IMG/VR virus record: IMGVR_UViG_3300042090_001530
Coordinates: 32,001-96,000 of that record
Strand: one strand, 5' to 3'
DNA: 64,000 bases
Source of the DNA: a virus
Lineage: Duplodnaviria > Caudoviricetes
Position numbers and translations under genes: made by a program. Under the pieces are notes generated by a model. It worked only from the letters and a program-made list of their open reading frames with translations. It was not told the origin of the DNA and searched no databases. Positions 31,016 to 60,585 of this stretch are shown here, piece by piece; position 1 is the stretch's first letter; the number at the start of each line of letters is the position of its first letter.

Positions 31016-32008
31016 ATGCCGTTGGTGGAGCGCAGGCGCAGAACCTTGATCGCTGGCAGTGTCGCTTTCGCGATCGCCCTGTTCGGCCTGGTCGTTTTCC
31101 TGATCGTCGTGGTGTCGCACGCGTCCACGCAGATCGCGGACCTGAACGCGGGTCGGGCGACACAGGACGCGCAGATCAACGGTCTCGCCGGGGCGGTGGA
31201 GTCGGCGAGGGCGCAGATCAAAGGGCTGGGTGCGACGCCGGTGGTGCCCGCGCCCTCGGAGATCTTGAAGACGATCACCGTGTCTGGTCCTGCCGGCCCG
31301 GCGGGTTCGCCGGGCGCGGCGGGCGTCGGGGCGACCGGGCCGGCTGGTGCGGTCGGTTTGCCGGGCGAACCCGGCGCCACTGGAGTCGGCGCGACAGGCC
31401 CGGCCGGCGCCAGCGGCGCGGCGGGCAGCCCGGGGGCTGCGGGCAGTCCCGGTGCGGCCGGCAGCCCTGGAGCCCAAGGCGTCCAGGGTGAACAGGGAGT
31501 CGCCGGAAACGCCGGCATGGAAGGCCCGGCGGGTCCCGCAGGGCCAGCGGGACCAAGCGGCGCCCAAGGAGCCCAGGGTTCGCCCGGCAGCGACCCGGCC
31601 GGCTGGTCGTGGACCGACCCGTCGGGCAACGTCTACACCTGCGCCGCGGATGGCCAGACGCCGTCGCCGAACTACGCATGCACGCTCGAGTCGTCCGCAT
31701 CAGCTTCGGCGACGGCGTCCGACAGCGCGAGCCCCAGTCCCGACCCGAGCTCCAGTTCAACGCCCAGCCCGAGCATGAGCCCCAATGCGAGCACGGCCCC
31801 GAGCGCGAGCATGAGCCCCGCACCGACAGCGACCGCATCTGACACCGCGCCCGACGCCCAGGCCGTCGCAGTGGACGCGTCCAGACCCACCGCGACGGCC
31901 GCCACCCCGGCGCCGACCGGCCCGCCCAGCCCGAGCCCCCGTGCCCTACTCCTACTCGCCATCCCGCTACTGCGGCGGGATGACCTTTACGCCATCGGAG
32001 AACACTGA
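31016..32008 (+). CDS. Membrane-anchored collagen-like protein
   Basis: N-terminal TM, coiled coil, about 30 Gly-X-Y triplets, small Cys pair, Ser/Pro/Thr linker, hydrophobic C-terminus. Confidence 0.75.
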   Translation: MPLVERRRRTLIAGSVAFAIALFGLVVFLIVVVSHASTQIADLNAGRATQDAQINGLAGAVESARAQIKGLGATPVVPAPSEILKTITVSGPAGPAGSPGAAGVGATGPAGAVGLPGEPGATGVGATGPAGASGAAGSPGAAGSPGAAGSPGAQGVQGEQGVAGNAGMEGPAGPAGPAGPSGAQGAQGSPGSDPAGWSWTDPSGNVYTCAADGQTPSPNYACTLESSASASATASDSASPSPDPSSSSTPSPSMSPNASTAPSASMSPAPTATASDTAPDAQAVAVDASRPTATAATPAPTGPPSPSPRALLLLAIPLLRRDDLYAIGEH

Positions 32009-48925: not shown

Positions 48926-49461
48926 CGCTGTCCCACGCCACGTACTCGCGCCAGGTGAAACTCAACCTCCAAGACCCCGACGACCTGTTCGTCGACGGGA
49001 TCCACGAATACGCCGGCACAATCGCCCCGCCCGTCGACCTTCACGAGCAGAAGGTCCACCTGGTTGACGCTGAAGCGATCCGGCAGGCACTCCTCGGCCT
49101 CCCCAAGGCGCTGACCGCACTGGAACGGGGCGCAGCGCTCGTCGTCTGCGACCAGTGGGGGCTCGATCGGGAGATTGTCGGGCTCGCGCGCGAAAGCCTT
49201 GATCGGGCGATCTCCCGCGCCCGCGAGGCCGCGCCGGAACGGCTGGGGGAGCTGCTGGAGACGGCTGCCGTGGAGTCGGTGCCGCCGCTCGTCGACGCAG
49301 TCAGGGTGCGCGACGCGGGGCTGGTCGAGGAGCTTCTCGTCGACCTGGACGTCCTGCAGCTACGGGCGCTCACGGTCGTCCTCGCGGACATGCTCGCCGC
49401 CGCAGGCGCGCCACGAGATCCCGGCGCCGACGTGGCGCACCTCGACCCCGAAGACCCGTAG
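48922..49461 (+). CDS. Hypothetical protein
   Basis: ATGA coupling. Confidence 0.5.
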   Translation: MTLSHATYSRQVKLNLQDPDDLFVDGIHEYAGTIAPPVDLHEQKVHLVDAEAIRQALLGLPKALTALERGAALVVCDQWGLDREIVGLARESLDRAISRAREAAPERLGELLETAAVESVPPLVDAVRVRDAGLVEELLVDLDVLQLRALTVVLADMLAAAGAPRDPGADVAHLDPEDP

Positions 49462-49482
49462 CCAGCAGGAAGTAGCAGTCCC

Positions 49483-49920
49483 ATGCCCGTCACGCTCGCC
49501 GCGCCGCCCGGCGAATCCGAGCCCATCCCGACCGAGACCGCCCGGCCCGCCACCCTGGAGCCGAGCGAGATGCTGCAGCGCGTCATAGCGATCCAGGCCC
49601 GCGATCAGCAACTCGTCGCCGACCGCTACCTGGCACTGTTCGTCGCCGCGCTGACCGCCCGACTGGCCCGCGCCTACCGCCGCGACCGGGACAGGCTGCT
49701 GCGCGCGAACCTCGCACTGCAAGCCGACCTTGACGCGTCCGCAGTCCGCGGCCGGTTCACGGCCGCGCAGATCGACGCGCTCGCCCGGGAGGTCGTCGAG
49801 CTGCAGGCCGGGCGCCGCGACCTGACCGGGAGGAACCAGACGCTCGAGGACGAGAACGCGCGGTTACGGACGCGCCTCGAAGCCGAGACGAAGCCGGCCC
49901 GCGGCCGGTGGCGTCGGTGA
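49483..49920 (+). CDS. Coiled-coil hypothetical protein
   Basis: Heptad-rich C-terminal half. Confidence 0.55.
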   Translation: MPVTLAAPPGESEPIPTETARPATLEPSEMLQRVIAIQARDQQLVADRYLALFVAALTARLARAYRRDRDRLLRANLALQADLDASAVRGRFTAAQIDALAREVVELQAGRRDLTGRNQTLEDENARLRTRLEAETKPARGRWRR

Positions 49921-50144
49921 ACGCGCGTCTCGCCCGCGCCCTGCGGGCCCTCTCACTGCTCGCCGTGTTCGCCGCCGCGTTCAACCTGGCGCTCGCCGAC
50001 GGCTGGCGCGCGCCGCTCGGCGCGACCGGCCTCGCAGTCGCGCTCGCCACAGTCGCCGACTGGGTGCAGCGGCCCGACCAGGCGCCCGAAGAGCCGGAAG
50101 ACCTCCCTGAACCGGAAGACGCGCAACCCGCGCGCCAGCCCTAA
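49917..50144 (+). CDS. Small two-TM protein
   Basis: Two hydrophobic segments. Confidence 0.5.
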   Translation: MNARLARALRALSLLAVFAAAFNLALADGWRAPLGATGLAVALATVADWVQRPDQAPEEPEDLPEPEDAQPARQP

Positions 50145-50165
50145 CCAGAAACGGACACCCTCGCC

Positions 50166-50612
50166 ATGACCACGAACGACGTACTCCTCCCGACCGCCGA
50201 CCCGGCCAAGGCGCTCCTCGCCGAACTCACCGGGCCCGCCACAATCGAGCAGTTGCTCGGGCGGGCCGAGCGCAACGGCACCAAGCGGGCCCGGCTCGTC
50301 GCTGCAAGGATCCGGCACGACGCCGATCTCCTCGAGCAGCTGCTCGCGCAGCATGGCGAAGAGGCCGTGGCGCGCCGGAAGGTCGACCGGCTGCGCGCCC
50401 AGCTCAAGGCGGCCGAAGCCGAACTGCGCGCGAAGACCGACCCGGAGCGCAACATCGCCCGACTCGCCGGCCCCAACCAGCCGGCACCGGCCGCGACCAC
50501 CAAGGTCATGCGCGCCTGGCTGATCGAGCAGGGGCACGAAGTCTCGGACCGCCGGCGCCTGACCGCCGCACAGATCGGGCAGTACGAGGCCGCGCACCGG
50601 GGCGCCGAATGA
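50166..50612 (+). CDS. Protein with C-terminal Lsr2-like DNA-binding domain
   Basis: KVMRAWLIEQGHEVSDRRRLTAAQIGQYEAAH resembles the Lsr2 C-domain. Confidence 0.75.
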   Translation: MTTNDVLLPTADPAKALLAELTGPATIEQLLGRAERNGTKRARLVAARIRHDADLLEQLLAQHGEEAVARRKVDRLRAQLKAAEAELRAKTDPERNIARLAGPNQPAPAATTKVMRAWLIEQGHEVSDRRRLTAAQIGQYEAAHRGAE

Positions 50613-51184
50613 CCACCACCTTCGATCCCGGCGACGGCCGCGACTACCTCGCCGAGATGAGCGCGCTCATCGATGGCGCGCTGCCCGACGGCGAATACAT
50701 CGCGCCCCTCGTCGCGCACGACCTGATCGAGAAGCTCAGGGCCAACGACGGCGAGCTCCTCGCCGGATGGCTCAACATGCGGGCCGAGGTCACTATGACC
50801 GCCTACATCTCGGATCGGATCAAGAACCGTCGCCAGTCGAGTCGGGAGTCTGCCGCCCGGTCCACGTTCGGCGAGGCTGCTGAGCGGTTCGCGGTGGGCG
50901 GCGACGGTGCCACGATGCGCGCCGCAGTACTGACGCGGCCGTTCGATGCCGAGTACGTCGTGAACTGTGAACTGCTGCGACGCAGGGTTGCGGAGATGAC
51001 TGGAGCCGACCACATCTTCGTCGCCAAGGAGTACGCCGAGACGAAGCAGACGGCGAGGCTCCTGGAGTCCTTCCATCGCGCGGTCGCCAAGAAAGTCGGC
51101 GACCAGAAGACGAAGGACGTTTTCACCGAGGGCCAGTACGTCGAGATGTACCGGTCGATCACCCGCCGCGAGTTGGCGGTCTAA
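50609..51184 (+). CDS. Hypothetical protein immediately upstream of the pentamer array
   Basis: 191 aa, ATGA coupled; its stop is 7 nt before the array. Confidence 0.7.
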   Translation: MTTTFDPGDGRDYLAEMSALIDGALPDGEYIAPLVAHDLIEKLRANDGELLAGWLNMRAEVTMTAYISDRIKNRRQSSRESAARSTFGEAAERFAVGGDGATMRAAVLTRPFDAEYVVNCELLRRRVAEMTGADHIFVAKEYAETKQTARLLESFHRAVAKKVGDQKTKDVFTEGQYVEMYRSITRRELAV

Positions 51185-51190
51185 GCGCGC

Positions 51191-51745
51191 ATGACAACCC
51201 TCACCGAATCACTTCAGCGCGCCGACTACCCGAGCCATCTCCTTGCCAACGCTGTCCTTCCCTTGCCGACGACCCATTTCTACGCAGTGCAGCCCCACGC
51301 AGTGCCATCCGACCCCCGTCGACGAGTCGCCCCTGGCCGACATGTCTCCGCCCAGCGCTGCCCCTACCGACTGCCCAGCGCATCGCGTCCCGTGCCATTT
51401 CGGCTCGTCCTGCTCCTGCCCCGCGCGCACCGACTTCCCAGCCCCGCGCGCCTCGTCGCACTCCAGCCCGCATCGACCACCCGGCCCACCTCACCGTGTC
51501 GCGCCCTGCCCCCTTCCATTCCCTGCCGACAACCCAACTCCCATCGCGCATGCCGTCCCGCCGCCTACCGACTACTCAGCCCACCGAGGCTCACGTCACC
51601 CCTCTTCGACTACACAAGCCCGCACCGCACTCCCCGAACCCTCGCGACTACCCATCCCGGCCCCGAACGTGCCTTCGCACCCCCACCTGGCCCTCGCTGA
51701 CTACCCAGCCCCCGACAGGCCGACAACTCCACATCCCTCACCACG
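51191..51745. repeat. Non-coding array of ~13 NNGAC-NACCC-anchored units with a 5-nt NN/C-rich lattice (candidate guide-RNA array)
   Basis: Anchors at 51191, 51222, 51266, 51309, 51337, 51367, 51430, 51473, 51526, 51568, 51606, 51644, 51697; most spacings are 5n+3. Confidence 0.85.
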
Positions 51746-51767
51746 TGACGAACCGAAAGGCTCTGAC

Positions 51768-52442
51768 ATGACCTCCGTCTTCGCCAAGCACATCCCCCAG
51801 GCGTGGCCCCACCGCTACAGCGGCACGCTGCACATCGTCACCCTCGCGGGCGGCACTCCCAGCGACCCCAATGTCGCCGAAGGCTGGCTCCGCACGAAGC
51901 TCGCCGACAAGAACGACCTCATCCGCGACGCTGTCGCCGAGGTCATGGTTGAGCGCGGCATCACCGCAGAGGAAGCCGCGAAGGAACTCGACCGGCTCAA
52001 GCACTTGAACGGCTTCAAGAAGGACCCTGAGCGTGGCGGAGAGCTCTACATCGAAGGCCGGCAACTCAAAGCCGGAATTAAGGAGGCGGCGTCCGTCGCG
52101 CGCGCGGTTGGGAAGCTCCCGGACCGCTGGGGCCTGACGAAGAAGGGCATCGTCAACTTCGTTGCCGAGCACATCCAGGTCGTTGAAGACCGGCTGCACC
52201 TCGGAGTCACCGAACCCAGCGACGTGCTTCAGTCCTTCCCAAAGAACGCGCGCACCGGGCAAACCGGAATCCAATACACCGAGATCATCCTGGACGCGAA
52301 GCTCGACTTCACGATCATCAGCGACTACAAGTTCAGCGACGACGAGTGGGCGATGCTCTGGCTCACGGCTGAGCAGCAGGGCATCGGCGCGTCCCGCTCG
52401 CAGGGCTTCGGTCGATACGAGGTCGTCAGGTGGGATTCGTGA
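51768..52442 (+). CDS. Stand-alone Cas7/RAMP-like protein
   Basis: 224 aa, GAAAGG RBS. N-terminal strand TLHIVTLAGG, ELYIEGRQLKAGIKEAA helix motif, terminal Gly-rich loop GIGASRSQGFGRYEV. Confidence 0.8.
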   Translation: MTSVFAKHIPQAWPHRYSGTLHIVTLAGGTPSDPNVAEGWLRTKLADKNDLIRDAVAEVMVERGITAEEAAKELDRLKHLNGFKKDPERGGELYIEGRQLKAGIKEAASVARAVGKLPDRWGLTKKGIVNFVAEHIQVVEDRLHLGVTEPSDVLQSFPKNARTGQTGIQYTEIILDAKLDFTIISDYKFSDDEWAMLWLTAEQQGIGASRSQGFGRYEVVRWDS

Positions 52443-52948
52443 CCACCCCGCAGGGCGCGGAGAGGCGCCCGGGGGGCCTAGGCGTCCCCGCCCGCGTCCG
52501 CCTCTCGCGCACCAAAGGCTTCCGGCTCCAGCAGTACGCGCCCGGCGCCATCGTCGTGCGTCGCCCCACGCGTTGGGGCAACCCGTTCACGGTTGCCGAC
52601 GCGCTCGCCGACGACCCGGCACTCACGGCGGCCCAGGCGCGGCAACGCTGCGCCGAGTTCTTCGACTTGTGGCTCGACGGGGAGATCGAACTCAGCGACC
52701 CGGCACTGGCCGAGCGCCGAGCCTGGATCCTCGAGCACATCCAGGAACTCGAAGGTCACCCGCTCGCCTGCACATGCCCCGAGGCCGTGCCAGGCGAGCC
52801 TGACTGGTGCCATGCCGTCAGCCTGATCCGCCGAAGCAACCCGCCGCAGCCGGTCGGCGAGTGCGGTGACGGCCTGTTCGCGGCCCCCGTCCGGCTGCGG
52901 CACGTCGTGCCCGTGAAGCTGCGGCGGGACGGGGCGGCGCGCCTATGA
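52439..52948 (+). CDS. DUF4326-like protein
   Basis: VRRPTRWGNPF...LEGHPLACTC...CHAVSL. Confidence 0.8.
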   Translation: MTTPQGAERRPGGLGVPARVRLSRTKGFRLQQYAPGAIVVRRPTRWGNPFTVADALADDPALTAAQARQRCAEFFDLWLDGEIELSDPALAERRAWILEHIQELEGHPLACTCPEAVPGEPDWCHAVSLIRRSNPPQPVGECGDGLFAAPVRLRHVVPVKLRRDGAARL

Positions 52949-53145
52949 CCACCACGAAATGCCGCGACTGCCATCGCCCGATCACGGATCCGGCCTCAAG
53001 GGAACGCGGGCGGGGATCCCAGTGCTGGCAGGACCACCTCGCCACGCTCGGGACCGTGCCAGTCAAGACGCTCGGGCGCGGACGCCGCGATTGGGCCGCG
53101 GTCATGCCCGGCCAGGAGGAGCTTCAGCTCGAGGTGGCGCCGTGA
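52945..53145 (+). CDS. DUF6011-like zinc-binding protein
   Basis: CRDCHRPITDPASRERGRGSQC. Confidence 0.7.
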   Translation: MTTTKCRDCHRPITDPASRERGRGSQCWQDHLATLGTVPVKTLGRGRRDWAAVMPGQEELQLEVAP

Positions 53146-58663: not shown

Positions 58664-59983
58664 TTGACCTCCTCCACCCGCCTGAAGGCGGGGGATTCCT
58701 CACTTCGCAGCGAGGGTTTCCTGCTTCAGCGCCGACTGCCCGCCGGGACGAGTCCCTTGAGGTCTTACATCGGCTCCACAGGCGTCCACCGCGAGCCCCG
58801 CGGCGGTCAGAAGGTTCCGTGCGGCGTTGACGTCGCGGTCGTGGACCGCACCGCACGCGCAGACCCATTCGCGGACGTGCAGCGGCATCTTCTCGGCAAG
58901 CGCCCCGCAGCCCGAGCACATCTTGCTCGACGGGAACCAGCGGTCGATCACGACCAGGCCCCGGCCGTGCCAGGCGCACTTGTACTCCAGCATGCGGCGC
59001 AGCTCGGACCAGGACGCATCCGAGATCGCGCGGGCGAGACTGTGGTTCTTGACCATGTTGGACACGGCCAGGTCCTCGATCACGATCGCTTGGTTCTCGC
59101 GAACGAGCCGAGTCGTCAACTGGTGCAGGTGGTCGCGGCGCCGGTCGCCGATCCGGGCGTGCACGCGCGCGACCTTCACCCTGGCCTTGTCTCGGTTCGC
59201 CGAGCCGGGCTGCTTGCGCGCCAGGTTCCGCTGGGCCTTGGCCAGCTTCTCCCGGTCGCGCTTCTCGTGCTTGGAGTTGCCGATCTTCTCGCCGTTGGAC
59301 AGCGTGGCCAGCGACGTCAGGCCTACGTCGATGCCGACCGCGCGGTTCGCCGCGGCGGGCAGCGCCTCGATCACGTCGTCGCACAGCATCGACACGAACC
59401 AGCGGCCCGCACTGTCGCGCGACACGGTCACGGTCGTCGGCTCCACGCCCGCAGGCAGCGGACGCGACCAGACGATGTCCAGCGGCTCGCGCATCTTCGC
59501 GAGCGTCAACTGCCCGTCCCGGTACCGGAACCCGGATCGGGTGTACTCGGCCGAGAGCTTCGACTTCTTCCGCGATTTGAACTTCGGGTGCCGGGCGCGT
59601 TTGGCGAAGAAGTTCGAGTACGCCGTGTCCAGGTGCCGCAGGGCCTGCTGCAGCGGGACGCACGAGACCTCGGCGAGGAACGCGGTCTCGTCGGTGCGCT
59701 TCCACTCCGTCAGGCGTCCGGAGCAGGCCGCGTAGCCCAGGCGCGTCCCGTCGAGCTTCCATGCTTCGGAGCGCTCGTGCAGGGCCTTGTTGTACACGAA
59801 CCGGACGCAGCCGAAGGTGCGGCTCAACTCCTGAGCCTGCTCTCCGGTGGGGTAGAAGCGGAACTTGAATGCCCGCTTGACCTGCTGCGACATGCTTCAC
59901 ATTCTATCAGATCACTTATGTTCGAGGGGGGAGCGGCGTTTCCTCCCCCGCGTGAACGCGAGGGTATCCACGCCGCGAATCCG
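58664..59983 (-). mobile_element. Non-autonomous IS200/IS605-family element (tnpB only)
   Basis: Right end ...GGAATCCCCCGCCTTCAGGCGGGTGGAGGAGGTCAA; left-end hairpin GCGGCGT...CCCTCGCG-TTCA-CGCGGGGG...ACGCCGC; TCAT abuts the left end; no tnpA; no target duplication. Confidence 0.9.
58700..59893 (-). CDS. tnpB: TnpB RNA-guided endonuclease
   Basis: FKFRFYPT HTH; RuvC residues in GIDVG, VIEDL and DRDVNAARN; CSGC/CACG zinc finger. Confidence 0.95.
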   Translation of the reverse strand: MSQQVKRAFKFRFYPTGEQAQELSRTFGCVRFVYNKALHERSEAWKLDGTRLGYAACSGRLTEWKRTDETAFLAEVSCVPLQQALRHLDTAYSNFFAKRARHPKFKSRKKSKLSAEYTRSGFRYRDGQLTLAKMREPLDIVWSRPLPAGVEPTTVTVSRDSAGRWFVSMLCDDVIEALPAAANRAVGIDVGLTSLATLSNGEKIGNSKHEKRDREKLAKAQRNLARKQPGSANRDKARVKVARVHARIGDRRRDHLHQLTTRLVRENQAIVIEDLAVSNMVKNHSLARAISDASWSELRRMLEYKCAWHGRGLVVIDRWFPSSKMCSGCGALAEKMPLHVREWVCACGAVHDRDVNAARNLLTAAGLAVDACGADVRPQGTRPGGQSALKQETLAAK

Positions 59984-60183
59984 ATGAGATGGCTACTGCG
60001 CCTCGTCACGCCCCCAGGCGGAACGATCTTGGATCCCTTCTGCGGAACGGGCACTACGGGCGAAGCCGCGATCTTGGAAGGGTTCCGCTGCATCCTGATC
60101 GAGAAGGATCCCGTGGCGGCCGATCTCGCCGTGACGCGCCTGTCCAAGCCGCTACAGCCGTCGCTGTTCGGGGACGTGGCCTG

Positions 60184-60585
60184 ATGAGCCTCGACTCGAA
60201 CATCGACCTCTCCGCCGCAGTCGACGCGCTCGTCATCGAAGCCGTCACCGACGACGAACGCGGACTCGCCACCACCGCCGTCCTCAAGATCGCGGCACGC
60301 GACCGGCCCGACCTCACCGAGAAGCACGACATCGAACAGCACGCGCTGCCCATGCTCGCCGCCCTCGGCCTCATTGACCCGCTCGCACCGATCCCCGGAC
60401 TGCCCGACGCCGTCACACACCTGACCGCAGGCAAGCACGTCAAACAGTCCGGCGCCACCACGCACGGCACCGAAGCCGGATACCGGTGGCACGTCCAACG
60501 GCGGTCGCGGTTGTGCTCGCCATGCCAGGCGTGGGGACGCGACAACCAGGCCGACACCGCACACGCAATCCAGAAAGAGGCCTGA
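60184..60585 (+). CDS. Hypothetical protein with a C-terminal His/Cys motif
   Basis: HGTEAGYRWH...CSPC. Confidence 0.55.
   Translation: MSLDSNIDLSAAVDALVIEAVTDDERGLATTAVLKIAARDRPDLTEKHDIEQHALPMLAALGLIDPLAPIPGLPDAVTHLTAGKHVKQSGATTHGTEAGYRWHVQRRSRLCSPCQAWGRDNQADTAHAIQKEA

Follow-up and report, generated by a model that had tools for sequence, protein, structure and literature searches.

VIPR (for Viral Interference Programmable Repeat) systems are phage-encoded, are related to CRISPR, and combine a minimal RAMP protein (Vipr) with guide RNAs (vrRNAs) made of 9–16 pentanucleotide repeats, in which a conserved GGY is joined to a hypervariable dinucleotide (NN), and of an invariant 3' tail (bioRxiv 10.64898/2026.04.26.720920). 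They were reported only months ago, and most tests so far concern a single E. coli phage and a single Pseudomonas prophage. Here we describe a non-coding array with a period of 5 nt, which is very probably the vrRNA array of a VIPR system in an actinobacterial provirus. The array lies within a 64,000-nt stretch (hereafter, the window; positions 32,001 to 96,000 of the 202-kb IMG/VR record IMGVR_UViG_3300042090_001530), between the gene for a small helical protein and a RAMP gene, which we call vipr.

In the published systems, the NN bases pair with double-stranded DNA while one base, usually the wobble base, is skipped; alternative consensus forms (NNNGG, YNNNG, and NNNNG) exist, all seven types are G-based, and accessory (vap) genes are present (bioRxiv 10.64898/2026.04.26.720920). 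The same preprint also describes "staggered" arrays, in which each vrRNA starts at the end of the preceding one (fig. S17/S18). In the solved Vipr complex, as described in a later preprint, each pentamer is bound by a single protomer, G1 and G2 being recognised by H17/D177 and R138/W178. Another study reports 21 period-5 clusters beside Vipr-like folds, with non-GGY triplets such as GAC/NN and CAC/NN (bioRxiv 10.64898/2026.10.21.760802). For reference, phage phiSUSP1 (KT454805; L064 in our set of related and reference loci) carries a two-gene locus at 27.5–29.5 kb with YNNGG tracts at its flanks, on the gene strand.

The locus studied here belongs to the kind published in 2026 but is architecturally distinct, with short abutting units punctuated by GAC, a non-GGY triplet, and an unrelated accessory gene. 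The module consists of the helical accessory gene (50609–51184), the array (51193–51767), and vipr (51768–52442), with the following features (window coordinates):

50609–51184, + strand: candidate vipr-accessory (vap-like) gene, 191 aa, all-helical, of no known family
51193–51223, + strand: first unit, conserved and leader-like (GAC-AA-CCC-TC-ACC...), beginning 9 nt past the stop codon of the upstream gene
51224–51698, + strand: eleven variable guide units, each GAC followed by repeated NN + n-Y-C; starts at 51224, 51268, 51311, 51339, 51369, 51432, 51475, 51528, 51570, 51608, and 51646; lengths, in order, 44, 43, 28, 30, 63, 43, 53, 42, 38, 38, and 53 nt
51646–51698, + strand: the unit with a candidate natural target, NN string at gg cg gt tt ac ca gg tc
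51699–51767, + strand: short terminal units and conserved array end, reaching into the ribosome-binding site (GAAAGG, 51755–51760) and identical in the related locus L015
51768–52442, + strand: vipr, a minimal Cas7-like RAMP of 224 aa with the C-terminal G-loop GIGASRSQGFGRYEV

The array fills a 583-nt non-coding gap (51185–51767), contains 49% C and 19.5% G, and causes the deepest GC-skew dip of the window. It holds 13 direct copies of an anchor (window consensus CCGAC-TA-CCC-AG-CCC), spaced by 31, 44, 43, 28, 30, 63, 43, 53, 42, 38, 38, 53, and then 23 nt. The anchor positions and spacings listed in the original prediction were thereby reproduced, including the observation that 8 of the first 12 spacings equal 5n+3. 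When the copies are aligned on the anchor, C occupies every fifth position from −14 to +24 in 11–13 of the 13. The original prediction had also proposed an autocorrelation check against shuffled sequence. Identity autocorrelation of 51185–51767, compared with 500 dinucleotide-preserving shuffles, revealed the expected excess at lag 5 (z = 4.1), with weaker echoes at lags 10, 15, 20, and 25 (z = 1.9–2.8), while period 3 was not raised in the array (lag 3 z = −1.5). The period-5 spectral power of the array was equalled by 2.8% of the shuffles, and among 2020 sliding 500-nt windows of the 202-kb record the array had the top lag-5 excess (z 4.4). Tandem Repeats Finder reported nothing in the array and no 12-mer recurs inside it; therefore, the units are not copies of each other, and the view that the array is neither a simple tandem repeat nor a CRISPR array stands. 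Elsewhere in the window, the second-highest lag-5 excess (z 3.4) falls at about 59701–60200, where there is an excess at lag 3 too.

The array parses as 14 head-to-tail units, each consisting of GAC followed by repeats of NN plus the triplet n-Y-C, in which the last C is present at 94–98%, and the unit lengths are therefore 5n+3. The same grammar emerges from 696 units of 57 non-redundant related loci, whose lengths peak at 23, 28, 33, 38, 43, 48, 53, 58, and 63 nt, with a secondary +1 series. Modulo 5, the lengths are distributed as 321/152/106/78/39 over residues 3/4/0/2/1, whereas modulo 3 they are flat (222/232/242), in keeping with the earlier claim that the periodicity is not codon-driven. 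The units of the window start with (C)CGAC-TA-CCC-AN-CCC, and the first two pentamers, TA-CCC and AN-CCC, are conserved across the family. In the 278 clean units of the 57 loci used for position statistics, the NN positions are near-uniform; in the triplet, base 1 is C in ~55%, base 2 is C in 54–89% and mostly a pyrimidine, and base 3 is C in 93–100%. Thus, the quantisation of units in steps of 5 nt, the fixed C at position 5, and the free positions 1–2 that had been proposed for the window hold both here and across about 60 related loci. On the opposite strand, the fixed n-Y-C triplet reads G-R-n, not GGY. An invariant block of 13–15 nt, which is unstructured and without an Rfam or ribozyme match, stands beside every tract; it falls on the 3' side of the tract only under one of two readings, a minus-strand RNA or an assignment of the block to the preceding unit. 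An Rfam scan of the broader region (50000–53000, E values up to 1) returned nothing. The frequencies of the NN dinucleotides correlate with those of codon positions 1–2 with r of 0.78, compared with 0.62 for positions 2–3 and 0.52 for positions 3–1.

The gene downstream of the array connects it to VIPR. Homologs of its product number more than 1384; the 120 listed have 64–96% identity, and none is named or assigned to a Pfam family. They originate from Streptomyces, Streptacidiphilus, Nocardiopsis, Actinomadura, Streptosporangium, and soil metagenomes; at the nucleotide level, a blastn search of 50600–52450 against the phage collection gave no match. Residues G205, G207, R210, G215, and R216 of the C-terminal G-loop are invariant in 24 homologs. 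The AlphaFold2 model of the 224-aa protein has a predicted local distance difference test score (pLDDT) of 79.7, and its top 50 Foldseek matches in the PDB are all Csm3, type VII Cas7, or Cas7-11 (E 3e-6 to 1e-4, probability 1.0), with a VIA Z score of the model up to 9.3, in agreement with Vipr being a small RAMP that has an RRM core, a thumb, and a glycine-rich loop. In a search of AlphaFold database clusters, ranks 1, 2, 3, 5, and 6 were taken by A0A2D6XG06 (E 6.8e-10, 25% identity), A0A1F4YLN4, X1U2U4, A0A661D0E2, and A0A0F9A1L0, which are the five published Vipr seeds, named as such in the methods of the founding report (bioRxiv 10.64898/2026.04.26.720920). This fold ranking of the predicted structure places the 224-aa protein nearer to the Vipr clade than to the RAMPs of CRISPR systems. 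With hhalign, the family profile aligned collinearly to the Vipr of phiSUSP1, G-loop included (E 0.0098), and a sequence search of the PDB with the Vipr profile found nothing.

Array and RAMP gene stay together across relatives. We collected 63 related loci, including 45 viral loci from IMG/VR, several of which are classed as proviruses. The same anchored C-rich array is found beside the RAMP gene in 11 of 12 genome loci and in most of the 45 viral ones; across the related loci, 899 anchors lie on the gene strand and 54 on the opposite strand, and a single array in relatives may contain up to 59 units. Very long arrays (45–59 anchors, ~2 kb), or arrays on both sides of vipr, were observed in L047, L053, L052, and L038. 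A homolog of the 191-aa gene is located immediately 5' of the array in 45 of the 63 loci. Most loci without it end just upstream of the RAMP gene; five of them (L033, L043, L056, L057, and L060) retain ~2.5 kb upstream with no detectable homolog. The 191-aa gene is syntenic and the other neighbours are not conserved; therefore, the module comprises the helical gene, the array, and the RAMP gene, and no cas genes were found within it. The accessory protein has no Pfam or PHROG match, no sequence match in the PDB, and no similarity to the Vap1 protein of SUSP1; its AlphaFold2 model is helical (pLDDT 81), and none of the fold matches was convincing (best structural Z 4.6, no Foldseek E below 0.019).

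Comparison of close relatives revealed that units come and go as wholes, as the original prediction had proposed for gain and loss in relatives. The window and L015, whose Vipr proteins are 96% identical, have in common the first unit and, near the vipr-proximal end, units 51475, 51528, and 51570, whereas units 51224–51474 of the window are unrelated to their L015 counterparts, and the window has two additional units, 51608 and 51646. The first unit (51193–51223) is identical in L015 and near-identical in L019, and at the other end the pentamer pattern persists up to 8 nt from the vipr ribosome-binding site. In L019 and L013, ten vipr-proximal units are common and the distal ones differ. An orthologous guide (51570–51607 in the window, 2360–2397 in L019) kept 14 of 14 NN bases, whereas 6 of 21 triplet positions changed, which is consistent with information residing in the NN bases. 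The contrast (Fisher p ~0.03) makes it appear that selection acts on the free dinucleotides of this guide pair. A substitution test extended to unit pairs of at least 70% identity was not clean, since scaffold identity alone attains that level.

To test the code, we converted units to NNx patterns, with one base skipped, and scanned them against the viral collection. One result came from a relative: for unit L025:2006, the 16-nt core was matched 61 times, compared with 2–20 times for the other five 16-nt cores scanned. Of these matches, 33, on 33 phage contigs, agree at 20–22 of 22 NN bases (one contig at all 22) and, read in frame, cover the peptide (L)YVQMVGRVLRP of open reading frames (ORFs) of ~240–690 aa. 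This peptide is motif VI of superfamily 2 helicases, and the two ORFs checked (L077 and L098) carry ResIII and Helicase_C domains. The same guide has no match with 3 or fewer mismatches in its own provirus or in three other VIPR proviruses. In the window, unit 51646 agrees at 18 of 18 positions, in frame (NN at codon positions 1–2), with the peptide MGRVFTHGS of a PF18909 dATP/dGTP diphosphohydrolase gene on a 51-kb viral contig of 63% GC; controls with shuffled order reached at most 15 of 18. The window's own record contains no homolog of this gene. With a chance probability of ~0.1 after allowing for the guides tried, the match is a candidate target, not proof. Judged from such codon-phase matches, the one-base-skip code holds in the present clade.

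Other guides were less informative. Among nine matches of the unit 51432 core, three are in phase and antisense to long high-GC ORFs (ALVTARLK), and four lie out of phase in another gene family; they are no more than possible targets. The core of unit L039:2365, from a relative, has five high-GC in-phase matches (VLLATQTQ), but the four NN that flank the core mismatch, and these are ambiguous as targets. Chance explains the three matches of the unit 51475 core, which fall on low-GC, mutually non-homologous contigs with one out of frame, and the 20 matches of the unit 51268 core, all of them on contigs of 30–56% GC. Unit 51369, with 20 specified bases, has no exact match in the viral collection, and 247 guides compared with the contig matched by unit 51646 showed no general enrichment.

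Several observations weigh against assigning the array to VIPR. Among the five window guides scanned on the viral collection, only one gave a convincing target, and no other guide of the window matches the contig hit by unit 51646. A pooled search of 197 guides against 0.5 Mb of local DNA (the 202-kb record and related loci, arrays masked, skips of 0–3) produced no excess over order-shuffled guides. The units of the window have 4–10 variable pentamers, not 9–16, lack a structured tail, and carry a triplet other than GGY. In the hhalign comparison, the phiSUSP1 readers of G1/G2, D177-W178, align to Ala-Ser in the present family, in a weak alignment (E 0.0098). A search of sequencing runs for the window, which stems from a wetland metagenome, found no RNA run containing it. 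For the relative L024, four RNA-Seq-library runs from one root-metagenome study contain contigs of 2400–2738 nt that run from the upstream flank across a different 814-nt array into vipr, leaving L024's own array uncovered; DNA carry-over is possible, and these contigs give no strand.

The comparison with described systems nevertheless places the locus closest to VIPR. The type II systems of Escherichia phage phiSUSP1 and a Pseudomonas fulva prophage (bioRxiv 10.64898/2026.04.26.720920, 10.64898/2026.04.26.720927) are likewise phage-borne, encode a single-RRM RAMP with a C-terminal G-loop and a small accessory gene, use guide tracts whose pentamers combine two free bases with a fixed triplet, and are read with a 1-base skip in codon phase against targets in other phages; in phiSUSP1, as here, array and vipr share one strand. 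However, each phiSUSP1 vrRNA has a promoter-like leader, 9–16 GGY/NN repeats, and a ~40-nt pseudoknot tail, whereas the present array consists of 14 abutting units (up to 59 in relatives) with 4–10 variable pentamers, an unstructured invariant block of 13–15 nt, 3-nt GAC punctuation, and, on the gene strand, an n-Y-C triplet. Its accessory protein shows no relation to Vap1, and the Vipr proteins are ~14–25% identical. The non-canonical and staggered arrays share the 5-nt period, the nearby Vipr-like fold, and the non-GGY triplets with the locus described here but are described as comprising ~10 repeats each rather than multi-unit arrays of 5n+3 units (bioRxiv 10.64898/2026.10.21.760802). The main texts of the VIPR preprints mention no Streptomyces or other actinobacterial example.

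The Cas7/Csm3 backbone of class 1 CRISPR-Cas systems offers a second parallel: a RAMP fold, one protomer per fixed RNA step, an invariant handle beside a variable guide, and many-guide arrays with cassette-like turnover between relatives. Yet the step is 6 nt there and 5 nt here, the guide letters here are non-contiguous, the present array has no direct repeats of at least 23 nt, and its module contains neither cas1/cas2 nor any further cas gene. With every fifth base fixed, the units cannot be captured spacers. A CRISPR-Cas array was rejected on these grounds, namely no recurring 12-mer, an empty Tandem Repeats Finder report, the fixed fifth base of the "spacers", and a module free of cas genes.

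The solved VIPR complexes suggest a mechanism by analogy. The array would be transcribed with the operon, with the C-rich strand, towards which we only lean, as the RNA, and cleavage at or close to the GAC-TA-CCC-AN-CCC blocks would turn the transcript into guides of ~28–63 nt. The suggestion that the anchor might serve as a processing site or handle fits the published invariant block capping a variable tract and the abutting units. Vipr would then assemble into a filament with one protomer per pentamer, hiding the fixed n-Y-C triplet and presenting the two free bases; the row of NN bases would pair with double-stranded DNA, skipping every third base and hence reading codon positions 1–2 while ignoring the wobble position. 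Binding would silence genes of competing phages. We give roughly even chances to the complete version of this scheme, in which the guide is the C-rich sense strand, the RAMP of this VIPR lineage reads n-Y-C rather than GGY, and one long operon precursor is cut at the GAC marks into short 5'-handled RNAs, in a CRISPR-like manner, with up to ~59 guides per phage and cassette-like turnover.

The polarity of the guide is the point at which the same VIPR system could be read differently. That the C-rich, vipr-sense strand is the RNA seems to us slightly favoured: it coincides with the vipr strand in 62 of 63 loci, whether the array is upstream or downstream of vipr; the array is squeezed between the upstream stop codon and the vipr ribosome-binding site, with no room for further promoters; and the mapped phiSUSP1 vrRNAs are co-directional with vipr. 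The alternative, to which we assign a somewhat less than even chance, is that the guide is the G-rich minus strand, antisense to vipr. Such a vrRNA would consist of repeated G-R-n + NN and end 3' in the invariant GGG-NT-GGG-TA-GTC, with the published polarity. Only on the minus strand does the order of conserved G, G/R, degenerate base, and NN agree with the published GG-Y-NN, and only there, as in phiSUSP1, is the invariant block 3' of the variable tract; moreover, all seven published types, including NNNGG and NNNNG, are G-based (bioRxiv 10.64898/2026.04.26.720920). Four phiSUSP1 vrRNA tails (L064, 27499–29511) open after the repeats with GG(T/C)AGT, which resembles the minus-strand anchor GGGTAGTC, maybe by coincidence. 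An antisense promoter, however, has no space in the tightly packed array just described, and a scan of 49400–52600 on both strands found no promoter or terminator consensus, although its sigma-70-type rules are weak for actinobacteria. Non-G triplets (GAC/NN and CAC/NN) are on record for other VIPR arrays, and the G-reading residues are not kept in the present Vipr, as far as the weak alignment tells. The only array inverted relative to vipr (L060:1540–2500), in a locus with no 191-aa gene homolog, also points away from a minus-strand guide: its ~90-nt AT-richer spacer contains TGCTAAGTT, an extended −10 that faces the C-rich strand, and TATATT facing vipr, and a long GC hairpin lies at the far end of the C-rich strand's array.

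Explanations outside VIPR fare considerably worse. In public assemblies, the tract is annotated as coding for a proline-rich protein, and all three forward frames are indeed largely open, because stop codons require A, G, and T, which are scarce here, with ORFs of 169–199 aa called here and in relatives. Nevertheless, period 3 is absent, the anchor occurs in all three frames, unit lengths are flat modulo 3, and relatives with 96%-identical Vipr proteins are unalignable mid-array and differ in length by units, not codons; the chance that the array encodes such a protein is practically negligible. The public calls across relatives' arrays (L014:1–591, L016:730–1329, L017:173–772, and L018:140–739), which predict proteins of 196–199 aa overlapping the vipr start, are almost certainly artefacts of stop-poor C-rich DNA. 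A DNA-level protein-binding array, such as replication-origin iterons or a partition site, would account for ~13 direct repeats of a 15-nt motif in an early-gene region beside an Lsr2-like gene; it is extremely improbable in the face of the extreme strand asymmetry, a single-base period of 5 that runs through the "spacers", the strict linkage to a RAMP gene in place of one for replication or partition, and free dinucleotides that spell the coding sequences of other phages.

A very improbable reading, in turn, is that the tract is a C-rich, G-poor leader for Rho loading or attenuation of vipr, or a type III toxin-antitoxin-like RNA array. The composition over the 583 nt 5' of the gene is that of a classic Rho-utilisation site, but composition alone leaves the phase-locked fifth-base C, the 5n+3 lengths, and the codon-phase foreign matches unexplained; a Rho effect could co-exist alongside guide function. 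As for type III toxin-antitoxin systems, a gene preceded by repeats recalls ToxIN, in which a tandem non-coding array also lies directly 5' of the gene for a presumed binding protein. There, however, the 36-nt ToxI repeats are near-identical and are processed by the protein, an endoribonuclease toxin, whereas here both the sequence and the length of the units vary and the gene downstream encodes a Cas7-like fold; a ToxIN-like array was rejected on these differences.

As a VIPR array, the locus would extend the same non-contiguous code to high-GC actinobacterial proviruses of Streptomyces, Nocardiopsis, Actinomadura, and others, with more than 1300 homologs, and to a different fixed triplet and array architecture from those of the characterised systems, with many short abutting guides. 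It offers an independent confirmation, from sequence only, of the 1-nt-skip rule, and suggests that natural guides target the best-conserved motifs in the replication genes of other phages. The approximately 700 parsed units constitute a large natural guide set for target mapping, and the compact multi-guide design may be of use for programmable repression in high-GC hosts. For annotation, the arrays carry a warning in that they are miscalled as proline-rich ORFs of 170–200 aa.

Finally, the surroundings of the module deserve mention. Upstream, at 50166–50612 of the window, lies the gene for the Lsr2-like DNA-binding protein (Pfam PF23359, E 5.8e-5, under the family cut-off; PHROG 1223), which is not conserved with the module in relatives. 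The genes 3' of vipr (52430–53145) encode DUF4326 (E 2.9e-14) and DUF6011 (E 2.1e-9) proteins and are common only to the closest provirus, L019. About 95 kb from the array, positions 178134–179400 of the 202-kb record include a Cas1 gene (PF01867, E 8.5e-9), and from ~179004 a regular CRISPR array with a 61-nt period follows, unrelated to the period-5 array; the record therefore probably includes host chromosome carrying a CRISPR-Cas system of its own.

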